NCBI GenBank assembly: GCA_043822785.1
Contig: JBDRBN010000003.1
Span: 1 to 34,530 of the forward strand
Length of the DNA: 34,530 nucleotides
Source: Pseudomonadota bacterium
GTDB taxonomy: Bacteria > UBA10199 > 2-02-FULL-44-16 > JAAZCA01
Reading direction: 5' to 3'
Shown piece after piece: positions 8,938-25,926 of this stretch (positions within the stretch are counted from its first letter, which is position 1; each line of letters opens with the position of its first letter). The notes beneath the pieces were generated by a model. It was not told where the DNA came from. It saw nothing but the letters and a program-made list of their open reading frames with translations, and made no database searches. The translations under genes and the position numbers were made by a program.

Positions 8938-8951
8938 GATTAATTTCAAAC

Positions 8952-9051
8952 TGTCATTGCAAGCGACGCCATGTACCGTATGGTACATGGCGAAGCGAAG
9001 CAATCCCCAGAAATTCGGGGATTGCTTCGCCCTAGCGGGCTCGCAATGACA
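8952..9051. repeat. Palindromic REP/RPE-like element, copy 4
   Basis: Same termini as the family; contains the same 24-bp nested hairpin as copy 1 (8968-8991). Confidence 0.9.
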
Positions 9052-9065
9052 TTCTTTGCATATAC

Positions 9066-9851: not shown

Positions 9852-9862
9852 CAGGATTCCAT

Positions 9863-9990
9863 GAGATCCTTCGACTCCGCCGAGCACTCAACTCGTTAAA
9901 TGCTCGGCATCGCTCAGGATGAGTGGTCGGGAAAAAAACTTCCCGACCACTCACATTTAAGGGGCACAACGTATTCGCTGTACCCCCTTA
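9863..9990. repeat. Cluster of three hairpins: a half REP-like element and two stem-loops (possible terminators)
   Basis: GAGATCCTTCG...CGCTCAGGATGA; TGAGTGGTCGGGAA/TTCCCGACCACTCA; TTAAGGGGCACA/TGTACCCCTTAA. Confidence 0.7.
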
Positions 9991-10017
9991 ACTTTCAAGT
10001 ATCAACTTTTAACCGCT

Positions 10018-10857: not shown

Positions 10858-11030
10858 TTACTACCTCCTTTATCGATTTTAGGGGCAATTGACGATTCTA
10901 GGTAAATTTTAAGCTGCGGATCTGAAGGCCCCAAACCCCCGATTCGCAACAATATTCTCTTTCAAAGTTCGCGAGCATTTACAGCACATTGGATTAAATG
11001 TCGAGGTAAAATTTCTCTTACAGAGCCCTT

Positions 11031-11087
11031 TGTCATCCCTGCGCAGGCAAGGATCCAGTCTGGATTCCCGCCTCCGCGGGAATGACA
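11031..11087. repeat. Palindromic REP/RPE-like element of a related subfamily
   Basis: TGTCATCCCTGCG...GGATCCAG / CTGGATTCC...CGCGGGAATGACA. Confidence 0.85.
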
Positions 11088-11114
11088 AACTACTCCTAAA
11101 CCGGTGGCAGGATC

Positions 11115-11891
11115 TTATGCTTTTATCCGATCCCCGTGCGTATAAACATTCATCCTGCTGCCCCTGGCAAAGCCCGCAACAGTAAGGCCTAGTTCTGCTG
11201 CAATCTTTAGGGCCATGTCAGTAGGCGCTGATCTAGATACAAAAATAGGTATGTCTGCAAACGCCACTTTACGAGCGATCTCAGAGGAAATGCGGCCCGA
11301 GCTGAGGAGCAATTTATCGTGCAGAGGAATGCGCTTCAAAATTAGGCTTCCTATCACGCGGTCCACAGCATTGTGTCGCCCAATGTCCTCTGAAAAGAAA
11401 AGTAGCTCAGAAACAGAGCATATTGCAGCGCTATGCACGCCACCTGTAGATTTAAAAACCTCGGATCTTTTTTGAAAATTGCTCATCAGCTTAAAGATCT
11501 GCTCTGCAGAAACTTTAAGACTTTTACCCTTCTCTTTGTTCTTAAGCTTTAAGGATTTTCGAGCAAGCTCAAAAGAGGCGCCCCTGCCGCAGCCGGAGGT
11601 AATATATCGTTGCACACTCGTTTCTTTTGAAAACCTCTCAGGGTCTATGGTGAAATAGAGGCTCTGTCCTTTTTGTTCAAAACCTAAGATATCATCCGCA
11701 CTGTCTATAAATCCCTCTGTAAACAAAAAACCTGTACCCAGCTCCCTTTCTTCGTAGGGAGAGCACAGAAGGGTTGCAAGTTCAGTATCGTTAAGATTGA
11801 TTTGCACTGCGCCCTCTGCAACCACCTCGTCTTCAAGCTTCTCAATATTATCAGAAGTGATTCTGACAATGGGATATTTTTTTGTAAGCAT
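11115..11891 (-). CDS. fdhD: Formate dehydrogenase accessory sulfurtransferase FdhD
   Basis: GFLFTEG, TSGCG, TGGVHSA, EDIGRHNAVD, SGRISSE, SAPT and GFAR motifs. Confidence 0.95.
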   Translation of the reverse strand: MLTKKYPIVRITSDNIEKLEDEVVAEGAVQINLNDTELATLLCSPYEERELGTGFLFTEGFIDSADDILGFEQKGQSLYFTIDPERFSKETSVQRYITSGCGRGASFELARKSLKLKNKEKGKSLKVSAEQIFKLMSNFQKRSEVFKSTGGVHSAAICSVSELLFFSEDIGRHNAVDRVIGSLILKRIPLHDKLLLSSGRISSEIARKVAFADIPIFVSRSAPTDMALKIAAELGLTVAGFARGSRMNVYTHGDRIKA

Positions 11892-11897
11892 AATATT

Positions 11898-11959
11898 AGC
11901 GAGACAAGCGAGAAACGCGAGACAGGTTTACGTTTCTCGCGTGTCTCGCGTGTCTCGCC
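11898..11959. repeat. Inverted array of 9-bp repeats (3 x NGCGAGAMA facing 3 x TKTCTCGCN)
   Basis: agcgagaca agcgagaaa cgcgagaca - ggtttacg - tttctcgcg tgtctcgcg tgtctcgcc. Confidence 0.88.
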
Positions 11960-13674
11960 TATTTTGTTTTTGCCTCAAACTCATGCTTAAACTTTGTGAG
12001 CATCGCTTCAATCGGTATGGCGAACGCATCGCCCGTAGGGCAAAGGGTTGAGCCTTTGATGGTCTTGCACATATTTAGAATCATGTCGAACTCCTGCATC
12101 GAGCCTTTACCATCAACAAACTTCTTTAGCATCGCCTCTATGGCGTGCGAACCCTCTGTGCATGGCACGCACTGGCCGCAAGATTCGTGCGCATAGAACT
12201 TGATGGTGCGTAAAGCCAAATCTGGAATGGAGATGGTATCGTTTATTACCATGATGCCGCCAGAGCCAAGCATGGTTCCGGCCTTAAGGCACGAATCAAA
12301 ATCCAGCTCTATGCCCCTGGCATCTTCTGCCGTGAGTATGGGAACTGACAGGCCGCCCACTATCACTGCTTTAAGCCTTCCTTTAACCTCACCCGCTGCT
12401 TTTAAAATCTTATCCAGCTTTGTTCCCATGGGAAACTCGTACACGCCGGGCCTCCCCACATCACCGCACACGCCATAGAGTTTGGGACCGTAGTTATTTG
12501 TGAAGCCAATGCTCTTAAAAGCATCTGCGCCATTTACTATAATGTAGGGAAGGCAGGCCAGGGTCTCAACGTTGTTTACGATGGTGGGGCAGCCGTAAAG
12601 CCCGATGTTAGCTGGGAAAGGTGGCTTAACCCTGGGATTGCCGCGCTTTCCTTCTATGGATTCGATTAGCGCAGTTTCTTCGCCGCACACATAGGAGCCT
12701 GCGCCTCTGTGCACGATGATATCGACGTGTTTAAGCTGCCCATCTTTTTTGGCCTGGGCAATTGCTTTTTCTAAAATGTCGGCGATCCATTTGAATTCGC
12801 CGCGTATATATATGAAAGCAATCTTTGAGTTTATGGCATGGCTAGCTATGGCAATGCCCTCGATGAGAAGGTGCGGATCATACTGCATGATCTGCCGATC
12901 TTTAAACGTGCCTGGCTCACCTTCATCTGCATTGCATATTAAATAAACTGGTCGTGAATCGTTCTTTGGCAAAAAGCCCCATTTCGTGCCTGCGGGAAAG
13001 CCGGCTCCACCTCTGCCGCGCAGCATGGACTCTTTGACTGTGCCCGTAACCTCTTCGGACTTCATCTTAAGGGCCTTTTCCAATGCCTTATATCCTCCGC
13101 CCTTTTTGTATTCTGATATTTCTGTGGCCTTTGGATTGCCGCGATTCTTTAAGAGGATATTACATTCTGTCGAGAAATTGGCTGTCATGTCCGGCTTCGG
13201 CTCCTTGCCCTCGCGCAGCGTGTCTATGAGCTCGTCTACTTTTTCTATGGTAAGGTTTTCGTAATAGGTATCATTCACCTGCATTACAGGGCAGGTACCG
13301 CAGGATGCTAGATCCTCTACAGTGGAGAGGGTGAACATTTTGTCTTTTGTGGTTTCGCCAACTTTTATGCCGAGCTTATTTTGCAAATGCGTAAGTATCT
13401 CATTTGATCCGCTTAGGAATGCCGGCACACAGTTATCGAGCTGCAGATGATATTTGCCAACAGGTTTGGTGTTGTACATGGTGTAATAGGTGGCCACACC
13501 AAAGGCCTTGCTGGCTGAGACACCTAGTGCATCTGCGACTGCATTGATATTCTCGGGAGAGAGGTAATTGTTGTTCTCTCTCTGGATCAGATCCAGCGCA
13601 GGCATGAGCGCTGACTCGGGATTGGGATATTTTTTTGCAATTTCAGCAACTTGTTCAGCGAGATTATTTTTCAT
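11959..13674 (-). CDS. nuoEF: NuoE-NuoF fusion (NADH-binding diaphorase module)
   Basis: N-terminal NuoE-like domain (ALMPALD, GVATYYTMY); NuoF motifs GRGGAGFP, NADEGEPGTFKDR, GAGSYVCGEETAL, GTMLGSG and ESCGQCVPC...LCP. Confidence 0.92.
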   Translation of the reverse strand: MKNNLAEQVAEIAKKYPNPESALMPALDLIQRENNNYLSPENINAVADALGVSASKAFGVATYYTMYNTKPVGKYHLQLDNCVPAFLSGSNEILTHLQNKLGIKVGETTKDKMFTLSTVEDLASCGTCPVMQVNDTYYENLTIEKVDELIDTLREGKEPKPDMTANFSTECNILLKNRGNPKATEISEYKKGGGYKALEKALKMKSEEVTGTVKESMLRGRGGAGFPAGTKWGFLPKNDSRPVYLICNADEGEPGTFKDRQIMQYDPHLLIEGIAIASHAINSKIAFIYIRGEFKWIADILEKAIAQAKKDGQLKHVDIIVHRGAGSYVCGEETALIESIEGKRGNPRVKPPFPANIGLYGCPTIVNNVETLACLPYIIVNGADAFKSIGFTNNYGPKLYGVCGDVGRPGVYEFPMGTKLDKILKAAGEVKGRLKAVIVGGLSVPILTAEDARGIELDFDSCLKAGTMLGSGGIMVINDTISIPDLALRTIKFYAHESCGQCVPCTEGSHAIEAMLKKFVDGKGSMQEFDMILNMCKTIKGSTLCPTGDAFAIPIEAMLTKFKHEFEAKTK

Positions 13675-13768
13675 TGAACCCCTCCTTAAAGAGGGGCTTT
13701 TTATTGTGTACTAAGCAAAAAAAGTCGAGGAAAAAAGGGCACCAGCAAGGCGAGAAATGCCACCTGTT

Positions 13769-13852
13769 TGTCATCGCTAGTCCGCGCTAGCGGGCGAAGC
13801 GATCTCCATGGCTTGAGGAGATTGCTTCGTCACTTCGCTCCTCGCAATGACA
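13769..13852. repeat. Palindromic REP/RPE-like element, copy 5
   Basis: TGTCATCGCTAG...GAAGCGATCTCC / GGAGATTGCTTCG...CTCGCAATGACA. Confidence 0.85.
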
Positions 13853-13861
13853 CATTAGAAC

Positions 13862-14974
13862 TCATTTTCTAGCTAAGACTTTTAACTTATCTGGCACTTT
13901 GCCCACAGTCTGTGCTGGCACGACCGGTGGTTGGCCGTTTTGGGTCATGATGGTCCTACCTTCTGGGCCAAGCACGAATTCAACAAACTTGATCGCGGTT
14001 TTGTAATTGGGCGCATCTTTAAGCACTGTAATGCCATACACCATGGGCTCGCCTGTTTGAGTGATCGTTTCGCCAGGCTTCTCTCCTGCTATCTTTATGC
14101 TCGCTGTTTTATAGAAATCAGCATGATCAGACGATTTCAAGTTGATCTCGTCTGGAAGGATCACAGACTTGCCATGATGCTGCTCTGCAACAGAGTGGTA
14201 TATAAATACATAATCCAGCTCGCCGGTTTCAAGAAGGGCTAGAAGATCGGTCTCCTTTGGCCTTATGTTTTTTCTGGGGCAGCTTTTGCGCAGGCTCTCG
14301 TATAGGCCAGGCTTCTTGTAATACTTTTCTGCCAACTGCCACACCAGCTGAGAGCGATAACCGCACGGATCAGTGTTGGGATCGCTGTGCCCATAACTTA
14401 CTCCCTCGCGCAAAAGGATTTCAGGCCAGTTCTGGGCGTTTATTTCATCATTATATTTGCTCTTGTCCGTGTACATTATGGCCATCTCGTTTGTGGCGAA
14501 CTTGGCATAGAAATCCGTGTACTTCGGCATAAGCAAATTCTCGATCACGGTATAATCGGCCGATGCCATGACATCAGCTTTTTTGTGCAGATCAGTAATC
14601 TTGCGCGCAGCTGTTACGCTGCCTGAGGCTTCGCGAATTACTTCGATGTTTGGGTATTTTTTTTGAAAGGCCTCTGCCATATCTTTAAGAGGCACAGAAA
14701 GACTGCCTGCATGGAAGATAATAAGCTGCTCTTTATTTTTGGCAGATGTGCAGCCAAAGGAAAAAGGCAGCACAATGACGAGGAATATAATGGGCACCTC
14801 TAAAAACCTTTGAGGTGTCATTGCGAGGAGGCGAAGCCGACGAAGCAATCTCCGTAGAATCACTGTTTGCGGGGAGATTGCTTCGCTCCCGTTGGTCGCT
14901 CGCAATGACAAACGGAAGGTTTTTAGAGGTGCCCTAATGATACTGAGTAAAGATCGTTTTGATATATGAAGCAT
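13862..14974 (-). CDS. wtpA: Tungstate ABC transporter substrate-binding lipoprotein, with a 49-codon in-frame insertion in the signal peptide
   Basis: IFHAGSLSVP, EASGS, ADVMASAD, DPNTDPCGYR, RPKET, YHSVA.QH and MVYGIT motifs; lipobox FSFGC; start uncertain. Confidence 0.9.
   Translation of the reverse strand: MLHISKRSLLSIIRAPLKTFRLSLRATNGSEAISPQTVILRRLLRRLRLLAMTPQRFLEVPIIFLVIVLPFSFGCTSAKNKEQLIIFHAGSLSVPLKDMAEAFQKKYPNIEVIREASGSVTAARKITDLHKKADVMASADYTVIENLLMPKYTDFYAKFATNEMAIMYTDKSKYNDEINAQNWPEILLREGVSYGHSDPNTDPCGYRSQLVWQLAEKYYKKPGLYESLRKSCPRKNIRPKETDLLALLETGELDYVFIYHSVAEQHHGKSVILPDEINLKSSDHADFYKTASIKIAGEKPGETITQTGEPMVYGITVLKDAPNYKTAIKFVEFVLGPEGRTIMTQNGQPPVVPAQTVGKVPDKLKVLARK
14792..14934. 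mobile_element. MITE-like element with 19-bp TIRs enclosing a palindromic REP copy; 4-bp TSD (TAAT)
   Basis: GGGCACCTCTAAAAACCTT (14792-14810) and its exact reverse complement (14916-14934); TAAT at 14788-14791 and 14935-14938; REP copy at 14816-14910. Confidence 0.9.
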
Positions 14975-14991
14975 ATTTCGTGCCCTAAACA

Positions 14992-15025
14992 TAAAAAAAC
15001 GCCCCGTGCAAGGGGCGTTTTTTTT
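14992..15025. terminator. Bidirectional intrinsic terminator
   Basis: AAAAAAACGCCCC-GTGCAA-GGGGCGTTTTTTTT, downstream of the 15044 gene. Confidence 0.88.
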
Positions 15026-15043
15026 CGATTTAACACACCGGAC

Positions 15044-16147
15044 TTAGGTTGGGTCTGGACAATCACCTGATAGACAATTTGGATCACCTATTATCACAAA
15101 AAAACCTCCAGCACCGTTTGCTAACGCGGTAGCTACCGGAGCTGCTCCTTCATAGAGAGCCGTACCTATAAGAAGCGTCGCAACCCCAATATCACGCACG
15201 AACGCGAAGTGATCATAAGGTTGTCGGGCTAACTCTAGGATCTCATCTCCTGTATTGTCTGGTTCACTATACTTCTCTTCCTCAACCTGAAACCTCTCCA
15301 TGGGCTGAATCGGTCGGGGATTGTCCACAGCCACAGGCTCTTTTCCATCACCACCAATTGGTGGGGCTGGTGGCCCCTTCTTGTCGTTGTCGTCTTTTCC
15401 ATTCTTTAAATACCGCACTATCTTTTTAAACGCAAATACTCCTCCTACAAGGAAACCTCCAAGAGCAAAACCAGTTCCAATAAGAAATCCATCCCATATT
15501 TTTTCAGCTGCATTAGGATCCTCTCGAGGAGTTTTACCGTAAATAAACTCCCTGAACACATCTATTCTTTCTTTATCTTTATCTCGGCCCTTATCAATGC
15601 ATTTTTCCACCAAATCAAAGTGCTCGAAGATTTTGTCATTTCTATCTATATTGTTTACGTTAATGCAAAAAGCACCCAGGACATTAGAAGAGGCATTAAG
15701 ATAAAAATCAAGTTTTGAAAGACCGATATTCTTAGCGAGAAACCCATCTCTTATGCATTGCATCTCCTCCGCATCTTCAAAGTAAGTACCCTCCACAGAA
15801 AGCGCAGAGCTATATTGGCCATTACAGAGATACGCACGCTCTGATTCAAATTCTTTGCCCTTGCCATCACCTGTAACAAAACTATCTTCGTTCACTGTAT
15901 AGAGGCCATTCAAAGTTTCTTCTCTCTTAGCACATTCCCAGTAGTCATCAGACTTAATATCGCAAACTAAATGTTTGTTATTTTCCCCTTGGGCTTCTCC
16001 ATCTTTACAAACCACTTTCTTCTCACCCTTAGGAGTACAAACTAAACCATCATTCTTTTTAGGCATATTAAGTGTGCATATAAGCTCGTTATTACCAGGA
16101 ATACAACGGGGTTCGACTTGAATTGTTTTTGTTTGTCCGCCTACCAT
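15044..16147 (-). CDS. Hypothetical membrane protein, paralog A (Cys-rich N-domain, TM helix, C-terminal hydrophobic tail)
   Basis: AAGGAGG RBS before ATG 16147 (MVGG...); similarity to 16372-17337. Confidence 0.8.
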   Translation of the reverse strand: MVGGQTKTIQVEPRCIPGNNELICTLNMPKKNDGLVCTPKGEKKVVCKDGEAQGENNKHLVCDIKSDDYWECAKREETLNGLYTVNEDSFVTGDGKGKEFESERAYLCNGQYSSALSVEGTYFEDAEEMQCIRDGFLAKNIGLSKLDFYLNASSNVLGAFCINVNNIDRNDKIFEHFDLVEKCIDKGRDKDKERIDVFREFIYGKTPREDPNAAEKIWDGFLIGTGFALGGFLVGGVFAFKKIVRYLKNGKDDNDKKGPPAPPIGGDGKEPVAVDNPRPIQPMERFQVEEEKYSEPDNTGDEILELARQPYDHFAFVRDIGVATLLIGTALYEGAAPVATALANGAGGFFVIIGDPNCLSGDCPDPT

Positions 16148-16157
16148 AAAATCCTCC

Positions 16158-16250
16158 TTACCGCCCACCCCTTTTAGTTGTTTTGGCAGCCCCCCTGCTT
16201 TCTGTTTTGCCTCTTCAAAACTATCCGTGCACTCTGCTCTAGGTGAAGAT
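16158..16250 (-). pseudogene. Degenerate copy of the 3' end of the 648-aa gene, now the 5' leader of paralog A
   Basis: Reads ...TESRGAAKTTKRGGR* versus ...TEKNRGAADTVKKGGR* at ~17350-17400; upstream in-frame stop and no start codon. Confidence 0.65.
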
Positions 16251-16263
16251 GGCTGCTATATTG

Positions 16264-16291
16264 TTATCGGCAAAAAAAAGGTCGAGTTGCG
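16264..16291 (-). promoter_or_regulatory. Sigma28-like promoter CGCAACT-N13-GCCGATAA
   Basis: The -10 matches the FliA consensus GCCGATAA; motif recurs three times with identical spacing. Confidence 0.7.
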
Positions 16292-16310
16292 TAAACGATA
16301 AAAAAACTCA

Positions 16311-16342
16311 TAAAAAAACGCCCCGTGCAAGGGGCGTTTTTT
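16311..16342. terminator. Bidirectional intrinsic terminator (same hairpin as 14992-15025)
   Basis: AAAAAAACGCCCC-GTGCAA-GGGGCGTTTTTT. Confidence 0.88.
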
Positions 16343-16371
16343 GTGCGCTATAGTATGTATGTGGTGGCGGT

Positions 16372-17337
16372 TTATGCCTCGGGAACGCCTTTGCCGCCAT
16401 TGGCCACACAACCAGGAGTTGATATGCACTCTGGATCAACTGCAAAGGATGGGATCAATGAAAACACAGCACCAGCCGCGCCGGCCGCAGCATTGCCGAA
16501 TCGCGCTGCACCATTGCCTATTACAGCCGCTGCCTTTGGCGCATTGTCAACAATATATGCACCCGCAACAAGTGCTGTAACTCCAACGTCGCGCGCAGCA
16601 TCCCAGAAGCCGTACTCCTCCTCAACCTGAAACCTCTCCATAGGCTGAATCGGATGGGGATTGTCCTTTTTCTCGTGCCGAGTTGCATCGCCGATTGGCG
16701 GCGGAGCTGGCGGGTCTTTGGGATCGTTGTCGTCATCCTTGTGATATTTCTTTCTAATCAAATTACCAATATCCGGACCAGGATAGATAAATACGAAAAA
16801 GATTCCACCCAGTCCTAGAACGCTACCAATACCATATTTACCGACCTCCCAGGCAAATTTTCCATACTGCCCTCTTTCGATATAGTCGAATATGCTCATA
16901 GCAGGCGGTGTATGGAGATCTATGAACTTTTCAAACGCCTCGATCCTTGCCTCGTCACTCTTCTTATCCTTGTCCGAACGACTTTCGTCTGAAAGACACT
17001 TTTTTACAACATTCATGTTTTTGAGGATGTCTAGATTTCTTGTTACATTAGATGCATTATAACATATTGCACCTTCGACATTGGACAAACTATCAAGATA
17101 CCAATCCGTCTTTGGAAGTGAGACTTTTTGCTTTTCAAGAGCATCTCTTACGCACTGCATCTCCTCTGCATTTCTCATGTAAAAACCTGAAATGCCCTTT
17201 GCCGGGCTCATGTTGGAGCTACAGGTTCCTGTCTGCTCACCTGCAAATTCGCTGCCCTTGCCGTCCTCTACTACATAATTAGACTTATCAACTGTGTAAA
17301 AACCATTCTGAGTTATAGTTGTTTCGCCGCCTACCAT
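16372..17337 (-). CDS. Hypothetical membrane protein, paralog B
   Basis: AAGGAGG RBS and MVGG start; shares GKG.EF, AEEMQC.RD, PPAPP.IG and PIQPMERFQVEEE with paralog A. Confidence 0.8.
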   Translation of the reverse strand: MVGGETTITQNGFYTVDKSNYVVEDGKGSEFAGEQTGTCSSNMSPAKGISGFYMRNAEEMQCVRDALEKQKVSLPKTDWYLDSLSNVEGAICYNASNVTRNLDILKNMNVVKKCLSDESRSDKDKKSDEARIEAFEKFIDLHTPPAMSIFDYIERGQYGKFAWEVGKYGIGSVLGLGGIFFVFIYPGPDIGNLIRKKYHKDDDNDPKDPPAPPPIGDATRHEKKDNPHPIQPMERFQVEEEYGFWDAARDVGVTALVAGAYIVDNAPKAAAVIGNGAARFGNAAAGAAGAVFSLIPSFAVDPECISTPGCVANGGKGVPEA

Positions 17338-17349
17338 ACAGCACCTCCT

Positions 17350-19296
17350 TTACCGCCCACCCTTTTTAACCGTATCGGCAGCCCCCCTGTTTTTTTCTGT
17401 TCCAGGCTCCACAGTATCGCTGTCTGCTCTGGGTGTATCTCTTCTTTCATCAGCCTTAGTCCGGCCAGGAGTGCCTCTTTGTGCTTGCCTCATGCTCGGA
17501 GGTCCGGATGAAGCTATTGTCATAACATGTTCAAACGCGGTCGGCTTAAAGGCATCGCCGTCCATGTGCAAAGCACTCAAACCCGGATCATTTTTCATAT
17601 CCATAAGCGCATTGATAATCTCTGTTTTAAGTGAGGGGGAGAAGAGACTCACCCGCAATTGAGGCACAACCGCTAGCGCTTCCTGAACTGCTTTTGAGTT
17701 CATAAACTGCTGCCAAAGCGCTTCGCGTTCTTGTGTCTGTGATGTTAGAAGAGTTCTTGCACCACCAGTACGAGGCTGATCAGGAATGAGAGTTGGGCGC
17801 TGATCGTCAGGTAACCCAGCTTGATCTAAATAACCTATAGATGGCGAGCCGCTTTTGGCTTCTGCCGCGCTCTGTGCATCAAGCCCAGCGCTAAGAGCAG
17901 CAACCTGTTCCATGCCCCCAGCCCTGCTATCAATCATGCTATCGTCCATGTGAACGTCAGTGCCCGAAAGGATACCTGGTATGGTCAAACGATCAGGTTG
18001 TCCGCTAAAAATAGAGTTTCTAAAATCTGCACCTATAAAAACGTTTAAAGGATCAGGCACTGTAGCAAAGCTGTTGGTTCCTTGCTGCTCTATAAATTTT
18101 ATCGTGCCATTGGCCTTAAAGTAACCAGCATTCAGTTCTCCACCTCTTCCAATGATCTTATCGTATTCAAAAAACAGAACCCGCCTTGCAAGGCTGGGTG
18201 TATCTATGCCCATTGATGCTGCATTCCTTAAGAGATCAGGATTTATGCGTAGATTTTGGCGCACAGCCCTGTAAGCCTTGCCCACGAGGCTCACATATTG
18301 GGCATCAACGCCCTTGTTCAGGTCGATCTTTACTGGAGCTGGGACAGAACCGTTTTCTGAGGTGATGGTAATTGAATTTGGTTTCGGCTTTTCTACAACA
18401 CAATTCACGCCTTTCACATCGAGCCTGAGATCCCCCGTGATAATCTTGGCTACCACATCCTGCCTCACATTATCGTCAAGTCTTTTGTACCAACTGATTT
18501 CTCCAAGCTTTTCACGAACTATTTCTTTGGCATTGTCTTTTGCAAGTTCGCCCTGCGTTATGATTACGCTCTCGCCTAAACTGAATATATATAGCCTTTT
18601 TTCAGGTTGATTTGGTTCAATTTTGATACCATCTATATCCAGATCAAAGTTTCCTTCAGCGAGAATCGAAAGCTTTTCCATCTTCACGTCATCTGAAAGT
18701 CTTCTGTACTCTTCAAAACGCAGAAGATCCTGATGAATGCGCAGCAAAGGTGCAAGCTTCTCGGCTTCCATTTGTGCCTCAGCTGCTAAAGCGCGAGAAA
18801 CCCTGATAGAATCGGCAAGGCTCCTTATGCCTGAACTAATATCTCTGACTGCTGCCGGAAGAACCTTGCGCAGGCCTTGGGCCAACGAGAGCAGCGGTCC
18901 GCGGCCTAAATAGACCGCAGTAGCGCCTCCTACAATAACACCAGCCAGTATGCCTGCTGATAGCAGCCAGTTGCTCTCTTGCTTGGGAGCTGTGGGTGAA
19001 GGCATGGCAATGGGTGCGGGCTCTACAGATGACTCCTCTTTGCCTGGTGTTGGATTCTCAATCTCATCGATCTCTCTGATCGTGTGCCAGGATTCAAAAG
19101 AGCGCCATATACCAGATCTTGCCCAACAGATTCCTCCCTGGGTATTGGCCTCTCTATTCTTTGCAAGCTTATCTACCGTTTCGCAGGTATTTGGCTGTTC
19201 ATCAAGATTCCTGACGCCATTCATTAGAATGTTGTCACATTCCGGCGGACAGGTCATATTCGGTGTGCTGCAAATGTTTGTTCTAGTACATGGCAT
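17350..19296 (-). CDS. Hypothetical single-pass membrane protein (648 aa)
   Basis: Long ORF; Cys-rich N-terminus, TM WLLSAGILAGVIVGGATAVYLG and low-complexity tail. Confidence 0.8.
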   Translation of the reverse strand: MPCTRTNICSTPNMTCPPECDNILMNGVRNLDEQPNTCETVDKLAKNREANTQGGICWARSGIWRSFESWHTIREIDEIENPTPGKEESSVEPAPIAMPSPTAPKQESNWLLSAGILAGVIVGGATAVYLGRGPLLSLAQGLRKVLPAAVRDISSGIRSLADSIRVSRALAAEAQMEAEKLAPLLRIHQDLLRFEEYRRLSDDVKMEKLSILAEGNFDLDIDGIKIEPNQPEKRLYIFSLGESVIITQGELAKDNAKEIVREKLGEISWYKRLDDNVRQDVVAKIITGDLRLDVKGVNCVVEKPKPNSITITSENGSVPAPVKIDLNKGVDAQYVSLVGKAYRAVRQNLRINPDLLRNAASMGIDTPSLARRVLFFEYDKIIGRGGELNAGYFKANGTIKFIEQQGTNSFATVPDPLNVFIGADFRNSIFSGQPDRLTIPGILSGTDVHMDDSMIDSRAGGMEQVAALSAGLDAQSAAEAKSGSPSIGYLDQAGLPDDQRPTLIPDQPRTGGARTLLTSQTQEREALWQQFMNSKAVQEALAVVPQLRVSLFSPSLKTEIINALMDMKNDPGLSALHMDGDAFKPTAFEHVMTIASSGPPSMRQAQRGTPGRTKADERRDTPRADSDTVEPGTEKNRGAADTVKKGGR

Positions 19297-19380
19297 ATGC
19301 TTATAGCCCCCGTTAGGTACCCCACCCTTTAAGGAAATATTCTAGACAACCTGATGTGTCTATCATGACCCTCTGTCTTA

Positions 19381-19408
19381 TTATCGACACATATTTGAAA
19401 AAGTTGCG
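19381..19408 (-). promoter_or_regulatory. Sigma28-like promoter CGCAACT-N13-GTCGATAA
   Basis: Same motif and spacing, ~85 bp upstream of the 648-aa gene. Confidence 0.68.
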
Positions 19409-19546
19409 AAAAAAATAAAGAAAATCTATCTTGATTTGAGGAAGCTAATGTCTTTATAATTCAACGAGTTAACCATCACCACTCGCATCCACCCACATAT
19501 GACGGAGCAAAATGAGATCGCTTGTGACCTCTGCGCATAGATTCTA

Positions 19547-19574
19547 CGCAACTTTTCTATCAAGGCGCCGATAA
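19547..19574 (+). promoter_or_regulatory. Sigma28-like promoter CGCAACT-N13-GCCGATAA
   Basis: Same motif and spacing, 100 bp upstream of the 19674 gene. Confidence 0.7.
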
Positions 19575-19673
19575 GAAAATAAGAAGATGGATGAAGCGGT
19601 TAACGCTTTGATAAATAAAGTTTTTTTGTGATTAGAAGTGTCGGACACTTTCTAGGCTGTAAGGAGGAATATT

Positions 19674-20684
19674 GTGTGTAATGCTGCAACCAGCATGCTC
19701 ACGAGCACCAGCTTTCCCCGCATCTTTCTAACATCTCTTACGCGCTGGGGCGTGGGGCTTTTTCCTACATGCATAGAAGGAATGGATGACCCTAGCACCT
19801 CGCCAACAATAGCATGGTCGTCTGATAAAAGGTTACTCCATAATCCACCCCGCCAAACCCTGCTCGATGTGCCAATAGTGCAGAGGCATAATTCATATCT
19901 TTCCAGGCAGATGTCCAAAGTAAGGGAGCTCTTTTATTCTGCACGCAAGGAGCAGAAGTCTTTTGACACAGTATATCGGGCATTACAGGCTGAGATAGAC
20001 CAAGCGCCTGCAATACTTAAGGAGATAAAGAATCCGTCTTTTCAAGTTCCCGAGTTAGCCGCGGCAGTTATCGGACGAGGTATTGGCGAAGATATGCTTC
20101 GCTCTGCTGTTTTACTATTGAACCTCGGCGATAACAAAAGCATTCAATGTGCCGCAGATATGTTCGTGGATTCAGCTGCATTGTATGTTGTCACTCACGG
20201 ACATGACGCTGATGCGCTATTAAAGGAGTTGGCCTATGCTGCATACGACACTTTATATTACAGAACTAATGAGTACGATGATTTGGATCATAGGCACCGG
20301 GAAAATTTGATGGCATTAAATGCTGAGGCGATTTGGGCATGGTCAAAGGCGCTATTGTCTGAACCAGATCCTGCATATGATGCTGTGCGAGTATTTTCTG
20401 GGCTGCGCGCTTGCTTTGCATCGCATATTCATTATGGGCACATGATTCCGTTTCTGCAACGATACAGCAAGCTACATCCCAAGGAGCAACATCCGGATAT
20501 TGCAGCCGAGAACAACCTGCGCACTGCCTGGGCACAGTTGGCTCAAACGAATTGGGAATCTGTTGCTAAAGAGATAGGTGCGGCTGCCTCTGTTTGGGAA
20601 CACCTGCCTCATCGTTCAAAGGATATCGAAAAATTGAAATGGTTCCTAGAGGGAGCGCAAAAGATTGCACGCTCAATGGGTTAG
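19674..20684 (+). CDS. Hypothetical alpha-helical protein, paralog of 4394-5500
   Basis: AAGGAGG RBS before GTG 19674; 336-aa ORF. Confidence 0.75.
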   Translation: MCNAATSMLTSTSFPRIFLTSLTRWGVGLFPTCIEGMDDPSTSPTIAWSSDKRLLHNPPRQTLLDVPIVQRHNSYLSRQMSKVRELFYSARKEQKSFDTVYRALQAEIDQAPAILKEIKNPSFQVPELAAAVIGRGIGEDMLRSAVLLLNLGDNKSIQCAADMFVDSAALYVVTHGHDADALLKELAYAAYDTLYYRTNEYDDLDHRHRENLMALNAEAIWAWSKALLSEPDPAYDAVRVFSGLRACFASHIHYGHMIPFLQRYSKLHPKEQHPDIAAENNLRTAWAQLAQTNWESVAKEIGAAASVWEHLPHRSKDIEKLKWFLEGAQKIARSMG

Positions 20685-23600
20685 CCTGCCTCTTGTGCAT
20701 TGGGCGCTGCTTCGACGGACTCAGCAGGGACTTCTACCTGAACAGTGAATTTCAGCACGCCGCCGGTGCGAACTTGGTTAGGTTGCCATGCCCGATCAGT
20801 TGCAGGCGCACCCCCTGACCCGCGCGTTTTTGGCAAGGGAAGGGTTACAGTGAGTTCTGTCGCATGATCACTCACGTCATTGCGAACGACTTTGATGCCC
20901 TTGCTCTGCATTTCGCTGATCAGCTCCTGGACTTGCTCTTGAGAAGTGACCTTAACATCTATCGTAACAAATTCTTGTATTGGAATGTTCTTAAATCCTC
21001 TAACCGGGACGCGCTCAAAAAGAGCAGTAGGTTGATAACCGTCGGGGTCGCGCCGTGGATCTCTGTTTAGGTCCCTCAGGGCATTCTCAAAAACATCAAG
21101 CGGAATGTTCTCAAGAACTTCAGGTCCATAATTAGAGGCTAATCTAGTCGCTAATTTCTGTCGATCAACTCTAAGCCTATAGACGGATGCAGACTTTTTA
21201 GTTATATCGCAATGCACGAATGCGTCTGCCAGAGGTCCTAGTTCGGCTACCAAGGACTCATTGTTCCATACACGGTAGGCTGTATCCATTTTGTAAAACG
21301 GCGATTGCTTGAGTGCCTCCATTTTCTCATATGTTTCTTTCAGATGTTCCTGCATACTTTGCTTCAAGCTTAGATTGGATGGATCCTTAATCAACTCATG
21401 ATACATCTTCTCATAAGCATCAGCTCGAGCTCTTAGAGCTTGCAGTCCGAGGCGGTATTGCTCTGCCAACGGTCTCCAATTCTTATCTCTAGTAAACGCA
21501 TCAAGGAAGGTCTCTGATTCCTGATTGCCAAGGAATGAATTTATCTCTAGCTCGTCAACGTACATTTTCGATGAATTCGTGGGGCGAGATTCAGACGACG
21601 CATCTGCAGCTGCTGCCCTCATGGCTTCAGCTGGCACATCCCTTGTTACAGATGATTCTGGAACCCTATCCGATACAGGCACGGACTGGCGAGGATTTTG
21701 CAAAGGGATCGGCACACTAGACTGCTCATTGCCAGATTCAGCAGGACTGAAGTTTCTCTCGTAATACTCCCTGACCTGCTGCATCTTACTGAGCGCTTGT
21801 CCCAGTTTTTTGCGCGCCAACTGTTGGCGGCCGAAATCTTCTGGAGCCTCGTCTGACAACCTGCGTGCATCATTGTATTGTTCAACGTAGTCTTTTAATG
21901 TGCCAAGATCTCGTAAGAAAATATCGGCTGCGTCTTTTAACTCCCCATTGCCTCTAGCAATAGAATCGAGTTTGTTCCTTGCCGGTGTTCCCTCATTGAA
22001 TCCACCGAGGAATTCTTGGAGTACGGACTCATCAAACGATTGATTCAGACTATGGCCCCTAGGAAGCGGCTTGTGGTTAGGATCATTTCTGAGTTCTGAA
22101 GGAGGAATGAATCCAACGTTAACAGGCTCTTGTGGTCTGGGAGGTATAACATCCTGTGCAGATGCTAAAGTAGGCTCATTGAGCTTCGTCTGGTAATAAT
22201 CTGATTGCTTGAGTTGATCCACTTTGTCGCTTGCCTCTTTCAGCATTCGATCAAGGTTTCTCTGCTGCGTTTTATTTGGTTTTTCGCCCGCTATCTTACG
22301 CAGTGCTTTGTATTCTCCAACAAGGCGTTCCAACGCACCTAGCCCATTGAGAAACCCTTCTGCTGCGGCTCTCTCTGAGTCATTGCTTCTGCCCATTTCA
22401 CCTTTTATGGCCTTCCTTGTCGACTCTTTGTACATATCGAGGAATTTATTAACGTCAGAAAGCTCGGGGAGTTCGGCCTCGGCCGCAGGTCGAGACCCAT
22501 TTGCAGCCCTGCGCTCAGTCGGCGCTGCGCCCAAAGAATCCCTTTCCGTACTAGGCACTTCTGTATCAGGCGCAGATCTGCTGGATTTTGGAGCTGATGC
22601 CGGCTCATCCATCACGATCGTATTTCCGACATCAGGATTCGACATCACGACTGTATCACCTACTCCTCCGCCGGCGGGTCTTGCGGCTTGTTGGATCTTT
22701 ATTGCCTGATTCAAGAGCCGATCGATATCGAACAACCGGTATTTGGTATCGGTGTTCGGATTATTTAGGGCGCCGCTTTTATCCAATGCATCGTACTGGA
22801 CTTTTGCTTCATTATATAGGCGCGCTACTTGATCCACTCCTGGAGTATTGGGGTTGTCCTTAATGAACTTGCCCAGCGCCTGTATCTTCGAAGGCAAATC
22901 AGCAGGAGAATTGACAGGCTGCATTCCGTCCACACGAACCCAGCCCTCGTGCCCCATAACGCCCGTAGTGTCCGGAGACGCATAGGGCTCACCAGGCCCT
23001 GGCCTTTTTACTGTAGGTGGATCCACTTCTGGAACTGTATCAGGCGGTGATTGTGACTCATTCGCTGCTTTTGTTTCCTCTCCTGCCAGTGTTTCGTGAT
23101 AATTCATCTCACGAACGCCATCTGCATCTAATACCAGTCCAAAGCGGCCCGCATATTGTTTTGCCTCCTTAATGCGCCCTCTTTTGAGTAAATCAGTTAA
23201 CTTATTGGAATTAAAATCCGGAATCTGAATTGAATACATGGTCAGCTTCAGATAAAGCGATTGAGCTGCCGGATCAGCATAGATGGGATCCCCTTCTGGA
23301 GTACGTGATTTGGGTGTATAACCAAGTCTCTTTACCGCACCTTCCGCCAGCATTGCAGCCTTAAGGCTTGCGAGTTTTGCGTGTTCAGCATGTTCCTTGG
23401 AAACGCCCTTTCCGCTGATTGCCTTTTGTGCAACAGCGTATTTCACATAAGTATAAACATCGATTGCAAGCCCGGCCTTCCAATCCTCAGATGCAGCCTG
23501 CCGCAAACCCAGATAATGGCTTGCCTGACTAGCAGTAAACATTGCGCCTATACCACCTGTGTGTCCGCCTGCCCAAGCAAGAACCTTTCCTGCTCCTGTC

Positions 23601-25549
23601 AATTCCAAACCACCATTCTTTACCATGCCTAAACCACGTGCAGCTCTTGCACTTAATGCGCCGATTCTGGGCGCTAGACCTTTGAGTAAACCAATCATTA
23701 TCAGATCCGCGCCATAATTTTGGGACATATGCCCAGCCGTATAGACCTGATTAACATCTTGAAAAGCCCCCTCTCGCACTTCGCCAATTCCCCATAGAAT
23801 GCTGGCTTCTGAAGTAACTCCCGCAGCCTCCGCCAAAATCACGCCCCTTCGTCCTACAACTCCTGCCTTCCCAAGCCCCTCTAAGGCACGAATAGTTGCT
23901 TTGGTTCCCACTGTACCTGCGGCTTTAAATGTCACGATGTCCAGCGCCATCATCTCCAATGACTCGGAGCGGTAGAGGCTTACTACTACATCTCCAAGAC
24001 CCTTTTCCTTTTCCAAGGATGCCATGTACGCCTTTGCATCTGCTTTTACTGTGGAATCTTTAGTGGTCTCGCCCACCAGAGAATAGATGGCTGCAGGAGT
24101 AGATATTGCAAAATATTGACTATCCAACATGGCACCCTCATCGAGTAGAGCGCGACCTGCTAAAGCGCTGGGATTAAGCTCTGAAGCATATGCGACGAGA
24201 TGAGGAAGTACGTATCCTGAGTCATTGGTATTTGTATGCTGCTCAGCCAAGATTTTGCGCGCACGGTCGCTAAATTCTGCCGGGCCGTTTTTCTCAATAT
24301 CTTTAAGCGCTTCTTGAATAGTATTTTGTTCGCCGGAGAGAATCCTTTCAACAACTACATTATGAAGATCTCTTTCCAATCCCCATCTCTTTGCCACCCG
24401 GTCCTCAATTGTCTCATCCTTGCCGCTCGCCATTTCATAAAATAGATACGTCTGTGCAACCCAGCCATTTGCCTCCCTGGATTCTACCGCTTCTCCCTCA
24501 TGGATATATGCTTTCCAGGCTTCCAGGGCGTAGAGGTTGATTCGCCTAAGTTGATTGTTTTCAATATTGCTGACAATTTCATTTGCCTCTTCAAAGCCTG
24601 GCGCATCTTTCCCGGCATCTCTGATCTTTTTGAATTTAACCAACGCGTCGTCGATATTTCCCTGCGCTAGGGATTTATAACCATCGTAGATAGGCGCACG
24701 CTGGGATATTTCCTTTGTCTTATCGTTGCTGCTGAAGTGAGACAATATTTCATATGTGTCGGCAGCCAAGCCACTCAGTTGCTTCCGAACAAATTCTGTG
24801 TCTTCTTTATCTGGATACTCTTGAGAACCCAGGACCAGATATTGATGCCCCATTCCCTCTACTGCACCGACAACTTCCTGCTTCTCCTCTGTGGGGGCGT
24901 CATGTAACTGCTCGAATACCTTTTTGATGTCTCCCAGACTTTTCTTTTCCTTCTTAGCTTCAACCGCCCAGTACATAGCCTGATCAGCATAAATCTGCTG
25001 AGAGATTTGTAATTGGCGCTTTTGCAGATAATCCCTTTCATCAGACGAGATCCCGTCAGTCTCCTCTCTTTGTTTTAGACCCTGCAGAACCTTTTGATTT
25101 GACTCCATCCTCAAACGACGGGCCTTTGAATCCCGTGACTGTGCATCTATCCGAATTGAGTAGGCGACACTTGCCTTCTCATAATCGCCGGACTCATAGT
25201 AAGATCTGCCCTTCTCAACTGCATTTTCAGGAGTGATGTCAGAGTATGGGAAGAAAAGATTGTTGATGCCGTCCCACATGTATCTCCATGCATCGTTATC
25301 ACTAATCTCTTCAGCTTCACTCTTAGATGATGGATTAGAAAGTACGGTGGGAACACGAAAGGAAGCATTATCAGGACCAGATGGAGGTGGTTTACCAAAG
25401 CTATCTTTGTTCGATGAGGTCTTTGTGCTGTCCTTTTTTGAGGAATCCTTGGCATCAGACGCAGACTTATCCGTAGAATCTGCTGACGCACTTTTTGAGA
25501 GTGCATAAGCAGCCTTAGCTAACAAGATTTCTAGTCCAAATATGGGCAT
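20681..25549 (-). CDS. Large hypothetical protein (~1622 aa): TPR-like N-region, Gly/Ala-rich hydrophobic core and repeated helical modules
   Basis: Uninterrupted 4.9-kb ORF; GGGAG RBS 7 nt before ATG 25549; TPR-like AVEKGRSYYESGDYEKASVAY. Confidence 0.85.
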   Translation of the reverse strand: MPIFGLEILLAKAAYALSKSASADSTDKSASDAKDSSKKDSTKTSSNKDSFGKPPPSGPDNASFRVPTVLSNPSSKSEAEEISDNDAWRYMWDGINNLFFPYSDITPENAVEKGRSYYESGDYEKASVAYSIRIDAQSRDSKARRLRMESNQKVLQGLKQREETDGISSDERDYLQKRQLQISQQIYADQAMYWAVEAKKEKKSLGDIKKVFEQLHDAPTEEKQEVVGAVEGMGHQYLVLGSQEYPDKEDTEFVRKQLSGLAADTYEILSHFSSNDKTKEISQRAPIYDGYKSLAQGNIDDALVKFKKIRDAGKDAPGFEEANEIVSNIENNQLRRINLYALEAWKAYIHEGEAVESREANGWVAQTYLFYEMASGKDETIEDRVAKRWGLERDLHNVVVERILSGEQNTIQEALKDIEKNGPAEFSDRARKILAEQHTNTNDSGYVLPHLVAYASELNPSALAGRALLDEGAMLDSQYFAISTPAAIYSLVGETTKDSTVKADAKAYMASLEKEKGLGDVVVSLYRSESLEMMALDIVTFKAAGTVGTKATIRALEGLGKAGVVGRRGVILAEAAGVTSEASILWGIGEVREGAFQDVNQVYTAGHMSQNYGADLIMIGLLKGLAPRIGALSARAARGLGMVKNGGLELTGAGKVLAWAGGHTGGIGAMFTASQASHYLGLRQAASEDWKAGLAIDVYTYVKYAVAQKAISGKGVSKEHAEHAKLASLKAAMLAEGAVKRLGYTPKSRTPEGDPIYADPAAQSLYLKLTMYSIQIPDFNSNKLTDLLKRGRIKEAKQYAGRFGLVLDADGVREMNYHETLAGEETKAANESQSPPDTVPEVDPPTVKRPGPGEPYASPDTTGVMGHEGWVRVDGMQPVNSPADLPSKIQALGKFIKDNPNTPGVDQVARLYNEAKVQYDALDKSGALNNPNTDTKYRLFDIDRLLNQAIKIQQAARPAGGGVGDTVVMSNPDVGNTIVMDEPASAPKSSRSAPDTEVPSTERDSLGAAPTERRAANGSRPAAEAELPELSDVNKFLDMYKESTRKAIKGEMGRSNDSERAAAEGFLNGLGALERLVGEYKALRKIAGEKPNKTQQRNLDRMLKEASDKVDQLKQSDYYQTKLNEPTLASAQDVIPPRPQEPVNVGFIPPSELRNDPNHKPLPRGHSLNQSFDESVLQEFLGGFNEGTPARNKLDSIARGNGELKDAADIFLRDLGTLKDYVEQYNDARRLSDEAPEDFGRQQLARKKLGQALSKMQQVREYYERNFSPAESGNEQSSVPIPLQNPRQSVPVSDRVPESSVTRDVPAEAMRAAAADASSESRPTNSSKMYVDELEINSFLGNQESETFLDAFTRDKNWRPLAEQYRLGLQALRARADAYEKMYHELIKDPSNLSLKQSMQEHLKETYEKMEALKQSPFYKMDTAYRVWNNESLVAELGPLADAFVHCDITKKSASVYRLRVDRQKLATRLASNYGPEVLENIPLDVFENALRDLNRDPRRDPDGYQPTALFERVPVRGFKNIPIQEFVTIDVKVTSQEQVQELISEMQSKGIKVVRNDVSDHATELTVTLPLPKTRGSGGAPATDRAWQPNQVRTGGVLKFTVQVEVPAESVEAAPNAQEAG

Positions 25550-25599
25550 CAACTAGCTCCCTGCACCCCCCAAATTGGGGGAGCTGCACTGCATATAGA

Positions 25600-25616
25600 A
25601 GCAAGTTATGTGCCAA
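25600..25616 (-). promoter_or_regulatory. Sigma54 (-24/-12) promoter
   Basis: Minus strand TTGGCAC-ATAAC-TTGCT matches TGGCAC-N5-TTGC, ~50 bp upstream of the 1622-aa gene. Confidence 0.8.
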
Positions 25617-25780: not shown

Positions 25781-25786
25781 TACTGA

Positions 25787-25926
25787 TCACTGATCACTGG
25801 TCACTGATCACTGATCACTGGTTACTGGTCACTGATCACTGATCACTGGTCACTGGTCACTGGTCACTGATCACTGGTCACTGATCACTGGTCACTGATC
25901 ACTGGTCACTGATCACTGGTCACTGA
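25787..25926. repeat. Heptamer tandem repeat (TCACTGR x20)
   Basis: 20 consecutive 7-bp units TCACTGA/TCACTGG, one of them TTACTGG. Confidence 0.97.

Follow-up and report, generated by a model that had tools for sequence, protein, structure and literature searches.

We analysed a stretch of 34,530 nucleotides (the window, positions 1–34,530 of contig JBDRBN010000003.1, assembly GCA_043822785.1) from an uncultured bacterium of the UBA10199 lineage, and within it an island at positions 15044–25616 that bears five long open reading frames (ORFs), A to E. The data obtained suggest a regulon of the sigma28 type that is coupled to a type III secretion machine. Genes A, C–B and D stand behind a sharp sigma28-like motif conserved across the class, and the only FliA-like sigma gene of the host genome (2.30 Mb, 148 contigs, 87% complete) is located within a gene cluster for a secretion system of type III (T3SS) of the needle-less kind designated T3SS*. 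With moderate confidence, we take the island to represent four transcription units of fast-evolving, lineage-restricted genes in two alternative-sigma programmes, the fourth unit being gene E with its sigma54 promoter, and to contribute to an attack programme linked to T3SS*.

The three units A, C–B and D begin with an element of the form GCAACTTT-N11-GYCGATAA, equal to the core CGCAACT-N13-GYCGATAA (Table 1). These are the three shared sigma28-like motifs at unit starts that had been noticed in an earlier reading made from the letters of this DNA (the sequence-only reading). The core was found in 12 copies in the whole genome, three of them in the island. When it was shortened to GCAACT-N13-GYCGATAA, all 13 genomic matches were intergenic, in a genome that is about 88% coding by a crude ORF map; 11 of them lay within 200 nt upstream of a same-strand ORF, and the reversed control gave no match. 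A looser motif yielded 43 matches, 35 of them intergenic (control: 5 matches, none intergenic), and the broadest pattern gave 45 intergenic sites with 44 downstream ORFs. Furthermore, the shortened motif was present in 40 of 41 related genomes, with up to 38 copies per genome, vs. a single match in total for the reversed control. The motif count is far beyond chance. Sigma70-type promoters in the region were at chance level (17 sites vs. 15.6 ± 4.6 expected).

The consensus of E. coli sigma28 promoters is given as TAAAGTTT-n11-GCCGATAA in a passage of PMC2859248. The −10 element of the island promoters is GCCGATAA at A and D and GTCGATAA at C, as expected of a sigma28 −10 element, and the spacing of 11 nt is likewise that of sigma28. 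The −35 octamer, GCAACTTT or GCAACTCG, matches 4–5 of the 8 consensus positions, and this variant is kept in 40 of 41 relatives.

Three genes of the sigma70 family exceeded the general cut-off, encoding an RpoD-like, an RpoH-like (NF005143, 275.8 bits vs. 241) and a FliA-like factor; an rpoN gene is present as well. The FliA-like sigma gene lies on contig C22 within a type III secretion cluster, between SctJ and SctL, with SctN, FliG-like, YscO-, FliK/HpaP- and FliM/N-like proteins and a 140-aa tetratricopeptide-repeat (TPR) chaperone of the LcrH/CdsG-like type as further neighbours. A 352-aa protein encoded between the sigma gene and SctL (L011 4744–5802, C22) shows FliG_M (E 2e-5) and FliG_C (E 2e-8) and is kept in the loci of the lineage as u352. 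The single FHIPEP protein of the genome scored 795 bits against an SctV cut-off of 692 and remained below the FlhA cut-off. Flagellin, rod and hook proteins were not found in the 87%-complete genome. An SctC-type secretin was not found either (best score 140.8 vs. a cut-off of 238.45), the three secretins present being located in loci of the type II secretion system (T2SS), PilQ and Tad kinds. The needle model gave no match in the host genome, but the control genomes were silent too, and Pfam (E ≤ 1) gave no sign of a FlgM-like anti-sigma factor in the cluster. The cluster is syntenic with the Myxococcus T3SS* cluster, with 26–61% protein identity.

The sequence-only reading had pointed to fliA, rpoN and flagellar, T3SS or Tad genes as what should be sought in the genome; the FliA-like sigma, rpoN, the T3SS and a Tad-like locus were indeed found, flagellin and rod genes were not. 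The Tad-like locus (L162, C74:32000–46000) encodes an RcpA-type secretin, RcpC/CpaB, a TadE/G-like protein, a 630-aa T2SSE ATPase and T2SSF. Co-occurrence of T3SS* and Tad is described, in the portion of PMC10849154 consulted, as restricted to Cystobacterineae; the lineage of the host genome would be an exception.

When species-representative genomes were scanned for the sigma protein, 62 loci were obtained, and in 60 of them the sigma gene stands among T3SS genes. At 52–79% identity, 33 loci belong to metagenome-assembled genomes (MAGs) labelled Deltaproteobacteria, Myxococcota, Pseudomonadota, UBA10199, Bdellovibrio, Victivallales or simply 'bacterium'; 27 loci at about 40–44% identity belong to Myxococcaceae/Archangium, with the order TPR chaperone, sigma, u165, SctJ, SctL, SctN. 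An affiliation of the host with Chlamydiae, first suggested by small genomes, by a T3SS in almost every relative and by the combination of sigma28 and sigma54, was rejected, the nearest sigma relatives being Deltaproteobacteria, Myxococcota, UBA10199 and Bdellovibrio MAGs. SctV was found in 40 of the same 41 related genomes that had been scanned for the motif. Moreover, the motif precedes small genes of the cluster itself. Of two such genes without assigned function, u140, which tblastn located in 9 loci of the lineage, has the motif upstream in 6 of them, and u176 in 3 of 5; in the host genome, u176 stands behind GCAACTTT-N13-GGCCGATA and u140 behind GCAACTTC-N12-ATCCGATAA. Since the sigma gene is located inside the T3SS* cluster and small cluster genes bear the same promoter, the island appears to be switched on together with the export machine. 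Judging from this arrangement, the FliA-like sigma of the cluster probably reads the GYCGATAA promoters.

To describe the content of the regulon, 40 proteins were scanned with Pfam: from the 44 ORFs, the three window ORFs and four ORFs of 60–80 aa were omitted, three extra sites were added, and two very short calls were swapped for the long ORFs behind them. No Pfam family was assigned to 24 of the 40. The families found comprise a transglutaminase-like core, Fic, RelA/SpoT, HEAT, VWA, subtilase, CAP, peptidase M15 and DUF4258; SMC, DEAD helicase and an AMP-binding enzyme are probably false positives, since they stand behind weak motif variants. Enzyme domains typical of effectors were seen as the transglutaminase-like core (C45), as RelA/SpoT in a protein of 874 aa (L110, C97:22352–24976) and as Fic (L101, C58:2612–3679). 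In the complete genome of a distant relative, 8 sites stand before 8 ORFs, of which six have no family, one encodes an SLT lytic transglycosylase and one an FGE-sulfatase domain.

Type III signals reside in the N-terminal 25 residues, which are rich in Ser, Thr, Pro and Asn and poor in acidic residues. In those 30 proteins of the regulon whose N-terminus is not hydrophobic, residues 2–26 were enriched in S/T/P/N/Q when compared to 1155 background proteins (0.317 vs. 0.246, p = 1.3e-4) and depleted in D/E (0.073 vs. 0.110, p = 0.005).

The five long ORFs of the island were confirmed at the coordinates given in the sequence-only reading. None of their products matched Pfam at E ≤ 0.01, with all nine flanking proteins matching in the same scan, none matched NCBIfam, and none has a Sec-like hydrophobic core at its N-terminus. 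The earlier description thus proved correct in that the five lack a family, housekeeping or other, and a clear Sec signal, that hydrophobic segments rich in Gly/Ala occur in four of them (A, B, C and E), and that Cys-rich or low-complexity N-termini are present (in A, C and E, as specified below). Its picture of five unrelated orphans has to be corrected: A and B are paralogs, A/B, C and E have relatives elsewhere, and it is D that is restricted to the host genome.

A and B are 35% identical over 317 residues (E 3e-43). By profile searches, their family is present in 9 of the 93 class genomes and in just 20 of 1.84 billion representative proteins, and tblastn detected no A/B genes in the host genome outside the window. 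The members have no signal peptide and share a domain of some 130 aa (as many as four Cys positions align in it, and one of these hardly varies, ≥90% of rows), a transmembrane segment, a G-P-K-x-P-P-x-P-P stretch and a second Gly/Ala-rich hydrophobic segment. In A, these features appear as a Cys-rich N-terminal half (10 Cys before residue 190), a transmembrane segment at 226–248, a PPAPP motif and a Gly/Ala-rich hydrophobic stretch at 320–363. AlphaFold, run with 19 sequences, folded residues 1–145 of B into an alpha/beta domain at pLDDT >90 and the remainder poorly; no convincing solved relative of this domain was found in the PDB (Foldseek, best E 1.2; VIA-align wide, best Z 4.9). To judge from the repeats around it, A is the product of a tandem duplication of the B unit, because, over 34 nt, the terminators behind A and B show 100% identity, and the 44 nt 5′ of A are similar to the 3′ end of C.

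Protein C is built from a Cys-rich head of about 85 aa (6 Cys in residues 3–57), a Pro-rich linker, a single transmembrane segment (107–136), a large variable domain and a basic KKGGR end. The host genome holds three more copies, two on contig C14 and one on contig C45. All of them share the Cys-rich head, the Pro-rich linker and the one transmembrane segment, and their middles differ: the N-terminal 138 aa of the paralogs are 81% identical, the rest has diverged, and the C45 paralog (C45:764–2488) bears a transglutaminase-like core recognised by Pfam. A basic C-terminal end [KR][KR]GG[KR] is present in C and in both C14 copies. Basic tails were also noted more widely, as KKGGR, KKGGK, RRGGK, ARRGK, VPGK and SRFSRK, at the ends of C-type proteins and of the large proteins encoded upstream of A/B genes in relatives; these short tails may serve as a sorting or interaction tag. 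A profile of the C head convincingly matched two genomes of a sister genus, and full-length C gave no match in 40 relatives. The ESM Atlas provided no usable lead for C or D.

In all six relatives examined, an A/B-family gene lies directly 3′ of an ORF of 478–891 aa. This upstream ORF is Cys-rich at its N-terminus in G012, G004 and G007, the three relatives with sigma28-like sites where it could be read from the start, and it ends in a basic tail in five of the six (the exception being G018). In five relatives the upstream region was readable, and in 4 of these the pair stands behind a sigma28-like site; in the sixth, the ORF reaches the start of the contig. A C-head gene with a GCAACTT-N13-GTCGACAA site of its own immediately follows the pair in one relative. 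As the gene order is the same in 6/6 relatives, we regard C–B as one instance of a conserved operon. Conserved co-occurrence in relatives, without which the sequence-only reading would have given up its proposal, was therefore observed, both for the pair of a C-type and an A/B-type gene and for the E family, which is kept with its sigma54 site.

Protein E has a disordered, low-complexity N-terminus rich in Ser, Lys and Asp, a conserved module of about 700 aa (approximately 110–810) and a variable C-terminal half made of helical repeats. The module opens with a canonical TPR repeat and holds Gly/Ala-rich amphipathic segments; in sequence and profile searches of PDB chains with E, C and the alignments A3, A4 and A5, the only match was this single TPR repeat, with which the module begins. 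The module occurs in 16 of the 93 class genomes, in up to 8 copies per genome and in ORFs of 1100–3700 aa. Two database relatives are 72% and 39% identical over the module and differ in their C-terminal halves, and TPR and HEAT repeats are seen in relatives of E. As a sigma54 promoter we counted TGGCAC-N5-TTGC(A/T), with GG and GC 10 bases apart and a gene downstream, in a genome with rpoN; the site before E has all of these features (rpoN, 207 bits), in agreement with the consensus sigma54 promoter that the sequence-only reading had placed there. The host genome contains 18 such consensus sites, 14 of them intergenic, when compared to a single match, not intergenic, in the reversed control. 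Among E homologs, a sigma54-like site was found upstream in 6 of 9 evaluable loci and a sigma28-like site in one. A 190-aa ORF elsewhere (C66:3898–4470) is preceded by two sites, a sigma54-like one at a distance of 6 nt and a sigma28-like one at 216 nt.

Gene D has three paralogs, all in the host genome (four copies in all), which are scattered and adjoin housekeeping genes, none standing beside genes like A, B, C or E. A profile search of the 93 class genomes matched the host genome alone, and a word-indexed search returned D itself only. The model of D (pLDDT 0.50) has TPR/HEAT-like structural neighbours at template-modelling scores of 0.30–0.41. Chaperones of the LcrH/SycD type are TPR proteins of about 130–170 aa that match TIGR02552 and are encoded beside their substrate, and D does not conform to this description. 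The claim that D is a partner or chaperone was not borne out: with 336 aa, its own promoter, scattered paralogs and no Pfam or NCBIfam match, it rather resembles another member of the regulon, because it has a promoter of its own and its paralogs stand alone.

Taken together, these results lead to the following explanation, the one held with moderate confidence above. Units C-B, A and D would be read from GCAACTTT-N11-GYCGATAA promoters by the only FliA-like sigma of the genome, and E, a giant TPR-containing protein of a class-wide multi-copy family, from its sigma54 promoter. A, B, C and possibly D would be exported or membrane-inserted parts of a contact-dependent attack programme, for predation or host contact, which would be served by T3SS*, possibly together with a Tad-like pilus. 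C–B would act in it as a two-gene module, in which a variable, Cys-headed protein with one transmembrane segment is combined with a conserved membrane partner having two segments. Genes A–E are accordingly candidates for cargo or partners of T3SS*; that A–D are actually exported or delivered by it can be put forward only tentatively. A bolder version, which we consider doubtful, would make the cluster sigma the master switch of a contact-dependent attack programme in a whole class of uncultured bacteria with small genomes, and the island a source of T3SS* cargo, including a C–B module that inserts into the membrane of prey or host, with the sigma54-driven E family as a second, separately triggered arm.

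Several observations weigh against this explanation or narrow it. The first five bases of the −35 element are GCAAC, vs. TAAAG in the sigma28 consensus, and the best model for the FliA-like sigma, TIGR02479 (FliA_WhiG), was matched at 141.7 bits, below its cut-off of 189.6. The link between sigma and motif is documented for this lineage alone, since a 9.4-Mb record labelled Archangium contained no match to the motif and strict matches occurred in 6 of the 27 Myxococcaceae cluster loci; an extension of the regulon to Myxococcaceae was dropped for this reason, 6 of 27 being too few. None of the five genes is in or beside the T3SS cluster, which is on another contig (C22), no small chaperone gene is adjacent to them, and no translocator family of Pfam or NCBIfam was matched by the five proteins. 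The regulon does not consist purely of T3SS substrates, because Sec or lipoprotein-like signals stand at the N-termini of about 9 of the 44 ORF products. The N-terminal bias runs in the direction of type III signals but is unspecific, being also expected of disordered, fast-evolving proteins. The conserved Cys of the A/B and C N-terminal domains and the transmembrane segments fit ordinary proteins of the cell's own membrane just as well. Finally, absences are provisional, as the genome is 87% complete.

Own-membrane proteins expressed in the same programme are indeed the main rival, although we consider this alternative rather unlikely. According to it, A, B and C would be inner-membrane proteins inserted via YidC/Sec, with their Cys-rich domains in the periplasm, and would belong to an envelope-remodelling or contact programme of the sigma28 type without being T3SS* cargo, D and E being cytoplasmic scaffolds. 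The transmembrane segments and conserved Cys positions of A/B and C agree with this, as do the TPR and HEAT repeats in relatives of E, which are typical of scaffolds, and the normal signal peptides carried by lipoproteins, a subtilase, a peptidase M15 and a CAP protein of the regulon. Short-headed proteins with a single transmembrane segment can insert without a signal peptide, and C has a head of about 100 aa before its only segment. In A and B, however, 150–220 N-terminal residues would have to be moved across the membrane without a signal peptide. The bias of the regulon N-termini toward S/T/P/N/Q also weighs against this alternative, and the C family joins a conserved head to varied cargo, including a transglutaminase core, which is more typical of delivered proteins.

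The same architecture could also be read as that of polymorphic toxins with immunity proteins, the C-type protein being an interbacterial toxin with a trafficking head and the downstream A/B protein protecting the producer; we regard this as improbable. It would account for the large variable protein followed by an A/B gene in 6/6 relatives, for the conserved 138-aa beginnings and diverged remainders of the C paralogs, one of them with a transglutaminase-like core, and for the remnant of a C-type 3′ end adjoining A, which is consistent with duplication and decay of modules. But it is the downstream partner that is conserved and the upstream protein that varies, whereas immunity normally varies together with the toxin; moreover, an A/B gene is missing behind the C-type genes of contigs C45 and C14 (by tblastn, A/B genes are in the window only), and neither C nor any of 10 related partner proteins showed a known toxin domain.

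The model of the sequence-only reading, with A, B, C and E as pore-forming T3SS translocators and D as their helical chaperone, is very unlikely, since the lack of signal peptides, the internal hydrophobic segments, the presence of a T3SS in the genome and the helical nature of D with its weak TPR/HEAT-like neighbours are outweighed by the lack of any translocator or chaperone family match in Pfam or NCBIfam, by the location of all five genes away from the T3SS cluster, by the size of D (twice that of LcrH/SycD), its own promoter and its lone paralogs beside housekeeping genes, by the 140-aa TPR chaperone that the cluster already possesses, and by an apparatus of the secretin-less Myxococcus type with no needle gene detected (in a search whose control was silent), i.e., not a classical injectisome. 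What stands of the broader idea of a stage-specific set under alternative sigma factors is that the promoters are real, that they belong to genome-wide regulons, and that rpoN, a FliA-like sigma and a non-flagellar export apparatus are present; a chaperone role of D and membership in translocator families found no support.

The layout of the island is collected in Table 1. C and B are both on the minus strand, B beginning 12 nt past the end of C, D is divergent from C, and the 3′ ends of D and E overlap by 4 nt. Strong ribosome-binding sites decided the choice of starts: ATG 16147 rather than GTG 16168 for A and GTG 19674 for D, which is favoured (both with AAGGAGG-type sites), and most likely ATG 25549 rather than TTG 25552 for E. 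No tRNA genes and no mobile-element ends were found around the island.

Table 1. Features of the island; nucleotide positions are those of the window, and positions of hydrophobic segments are residues of the proteins.
Feature	Position	Strand	Remarks
Gene A	15044–16147	−	367 aa from ATG 16147
Gene B	16372–17337	−	321 aa, paralog of A
Gene C	17350–19296	−	648 aa
Gene D	19674–20684	+	336 aa, all-helical, without hydrophobic segment
Gene E	20681–25549	−	1622 aa from ATG 25549
Sigma28-like promoter of A	16264–16291	−	CGCAACTCGACCTTTTTTTTGCCGATAA, ends 96 nt before ORF
Sigma28-like promoter of C–B unit	19381–19408	−	CGCAACTTTTTCAAATATGTGTCGATAA, ends 85 nt before C
Sigma28-like promoter of D	19547–19574	+	CGCAACTTTTCTATCAAGGCGCCGATAA, ends 100 nt before D
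Sigma54 promoter of E	25600–25615	−	TGGCACATAACTTGCT, TGGCAC-N5-TTGCT, 47 nt before E ORF
Terminator-like hairpin 3′ of A	14990–15023	−	100% identical to hairpin 3′ of B
Intrinsic-terminator-like hairpin closing C–B unit	16313–16342	−	12-bp stem and T run
Tandem array, 20.7 heptamers ACTGATC/ACTGGTC	25782–25926	.	about 170 nt upstream of sigma54 site, between ChaN-like gene and E promoter
Gly/Ala-rich hydrophobic segments	A 226–248, 320–363; B 164–188, 255–302; C 107–136; E 571–635		none in D

Exact contigs of one groundwater metatranscriptome cover 19074–19301, 19282–19493, 19702–19908, 20801–20957, 21606–21905 and 24174–24338, i.e., parts of C, D, E and the C–D spacer; they are assembled contigs that carry no information on 5′ ends, strand or level, and stretches without contig cover have no meaning in this comparison. 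One of these RNA contigs covers, at low depth, the stretch that separates the two divergent promoters, and DNA carry-over is therefore possible, which lessens their weight as evidence for transcription.

The summed metagenome depth over the heptamer array at 25782–25926 is far above that of its surroundings, and similar arrays are therefore likely to be dispersed or common to several organisms. Another heptamer array, (GGCTAAC)n, is located upstream of a D paralog (L129 2063–2145, contig C2). On the other side of the island, the flank at 7891–14992 encodes FdhD, two transporters (an ABC transporter of the molybdate/tungstate type and one for formate/nitrite) and a NuoF-like protein to which a 2Fe-2S thioredoxin-like domain is fused, thus suggesting an anaerobic, formate-linked metabolism. 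A pair of 36-nt inverted repeats, 86% complementary, was found at 14792–14934, and the contigs of all four runs break at 13818/13852 and 14817/14850 with very high summed depth; the inverted repeat together with the contig breaks looks like a hairpin element of the repetitive extragenic palindromic (REP) type.

By sequence comparison, three new protein families (A/B, the C head and the E module) and a conserved operon are defined here. A sharp, class-conserved motif turns genomes into lists of co-regulated genes, about 45 genes in the host and, in a relative, as many as 38 sites with the exact pattern, and most of the genes so listed have no assignable family. If the link between the cluster sigma and the motif is true, these lists provide testable candidates for T3SS* cargo and a regulatory handle on T3SS* that can be checked in Myxococcus, and they give a first hint that a little-known lineage with genomes of 2–3 Mb lives by attacking cells. 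Were the cluster sigma in addition a master switch, the long-sought T3SS* cargo could be read directly from genomes.

When compared to the class-III promoters of E. coli sigma28/FliA, the promoters described here have an identical −10 octamer, the same 11-nt spacing and the A-A and TTT positions of the −35 element, and in both cases the sigma is encoded together with a machine for type III export, alongside which its targets (here the presumed ones) are expressed. The differences lie in the first five bases of the −35 element, GCAAC vs. TAAAG, and in the targets, here about 45 and mostly unassignable instead of flagellin and chemotaxis genes, in a genome in which no flagellar genes were found and no FlgM-like factor was detected in the cluster.

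The needle-less T3SS* of M. xanthus (mxan_2434–2464) is described, in the passages of PMC10849154 and PMC12075869 consulted, as a system without secretin, needle and translocon that is recruited together with a Kil/Tad pilus at prey contacts; it is needed for prey lysis, and its substrates or effectors are unknown. No effector and no role for the cluster sigma are described in these passages (the word 'sigma' occurs 0 times in PMC12075869). The system found here resembles it in the syntenic cluster, in that no dedicated secretin was found, and in a Tad-like locus in the same genome, and differs in its host, a small-genome (2–3 Mb), probably anaerobic lineage, and in a large, promoter-defined regulon that is readable from sequence. 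Among the papers found, covered largely by title and abstract and in part by passages of the text, none ties a FliA-family sigma to T3SS* or describes a T3SS in UBA10199-type genomes.

In Chlamydia, late genes are under the control of sigma28 and sigma54, the latter being linked to T3SS effectors (stated in part of PMC12282069). Chlamydia and the present lineage are alike in being non-flagellate bacteria with a T3SS that employ sigma28 and sigma54 for stage-specific, often lineage-specific sets of membrane or secreted proteins. The chlamydial link between sigma54 and T3SS effectors is reportedly the work of Soules et al. in 2020. Unlike Chlamydia, the present host is an unrelated organism with another type of T3SS and a far larger sigma28-like regulon.

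HrpL is an extracytoplasmic function (ECF) sigma factor of the T3SS clusters of plant pathogens, with a hrp box of its own. The sigma described here is FliA-like instead, and its box differs; just as in the HrpL/hrp-box regulons, however, a sigma encoded in a T3SS cluster is combined with a readable box, such that effector candidates can be listed from the sequence.

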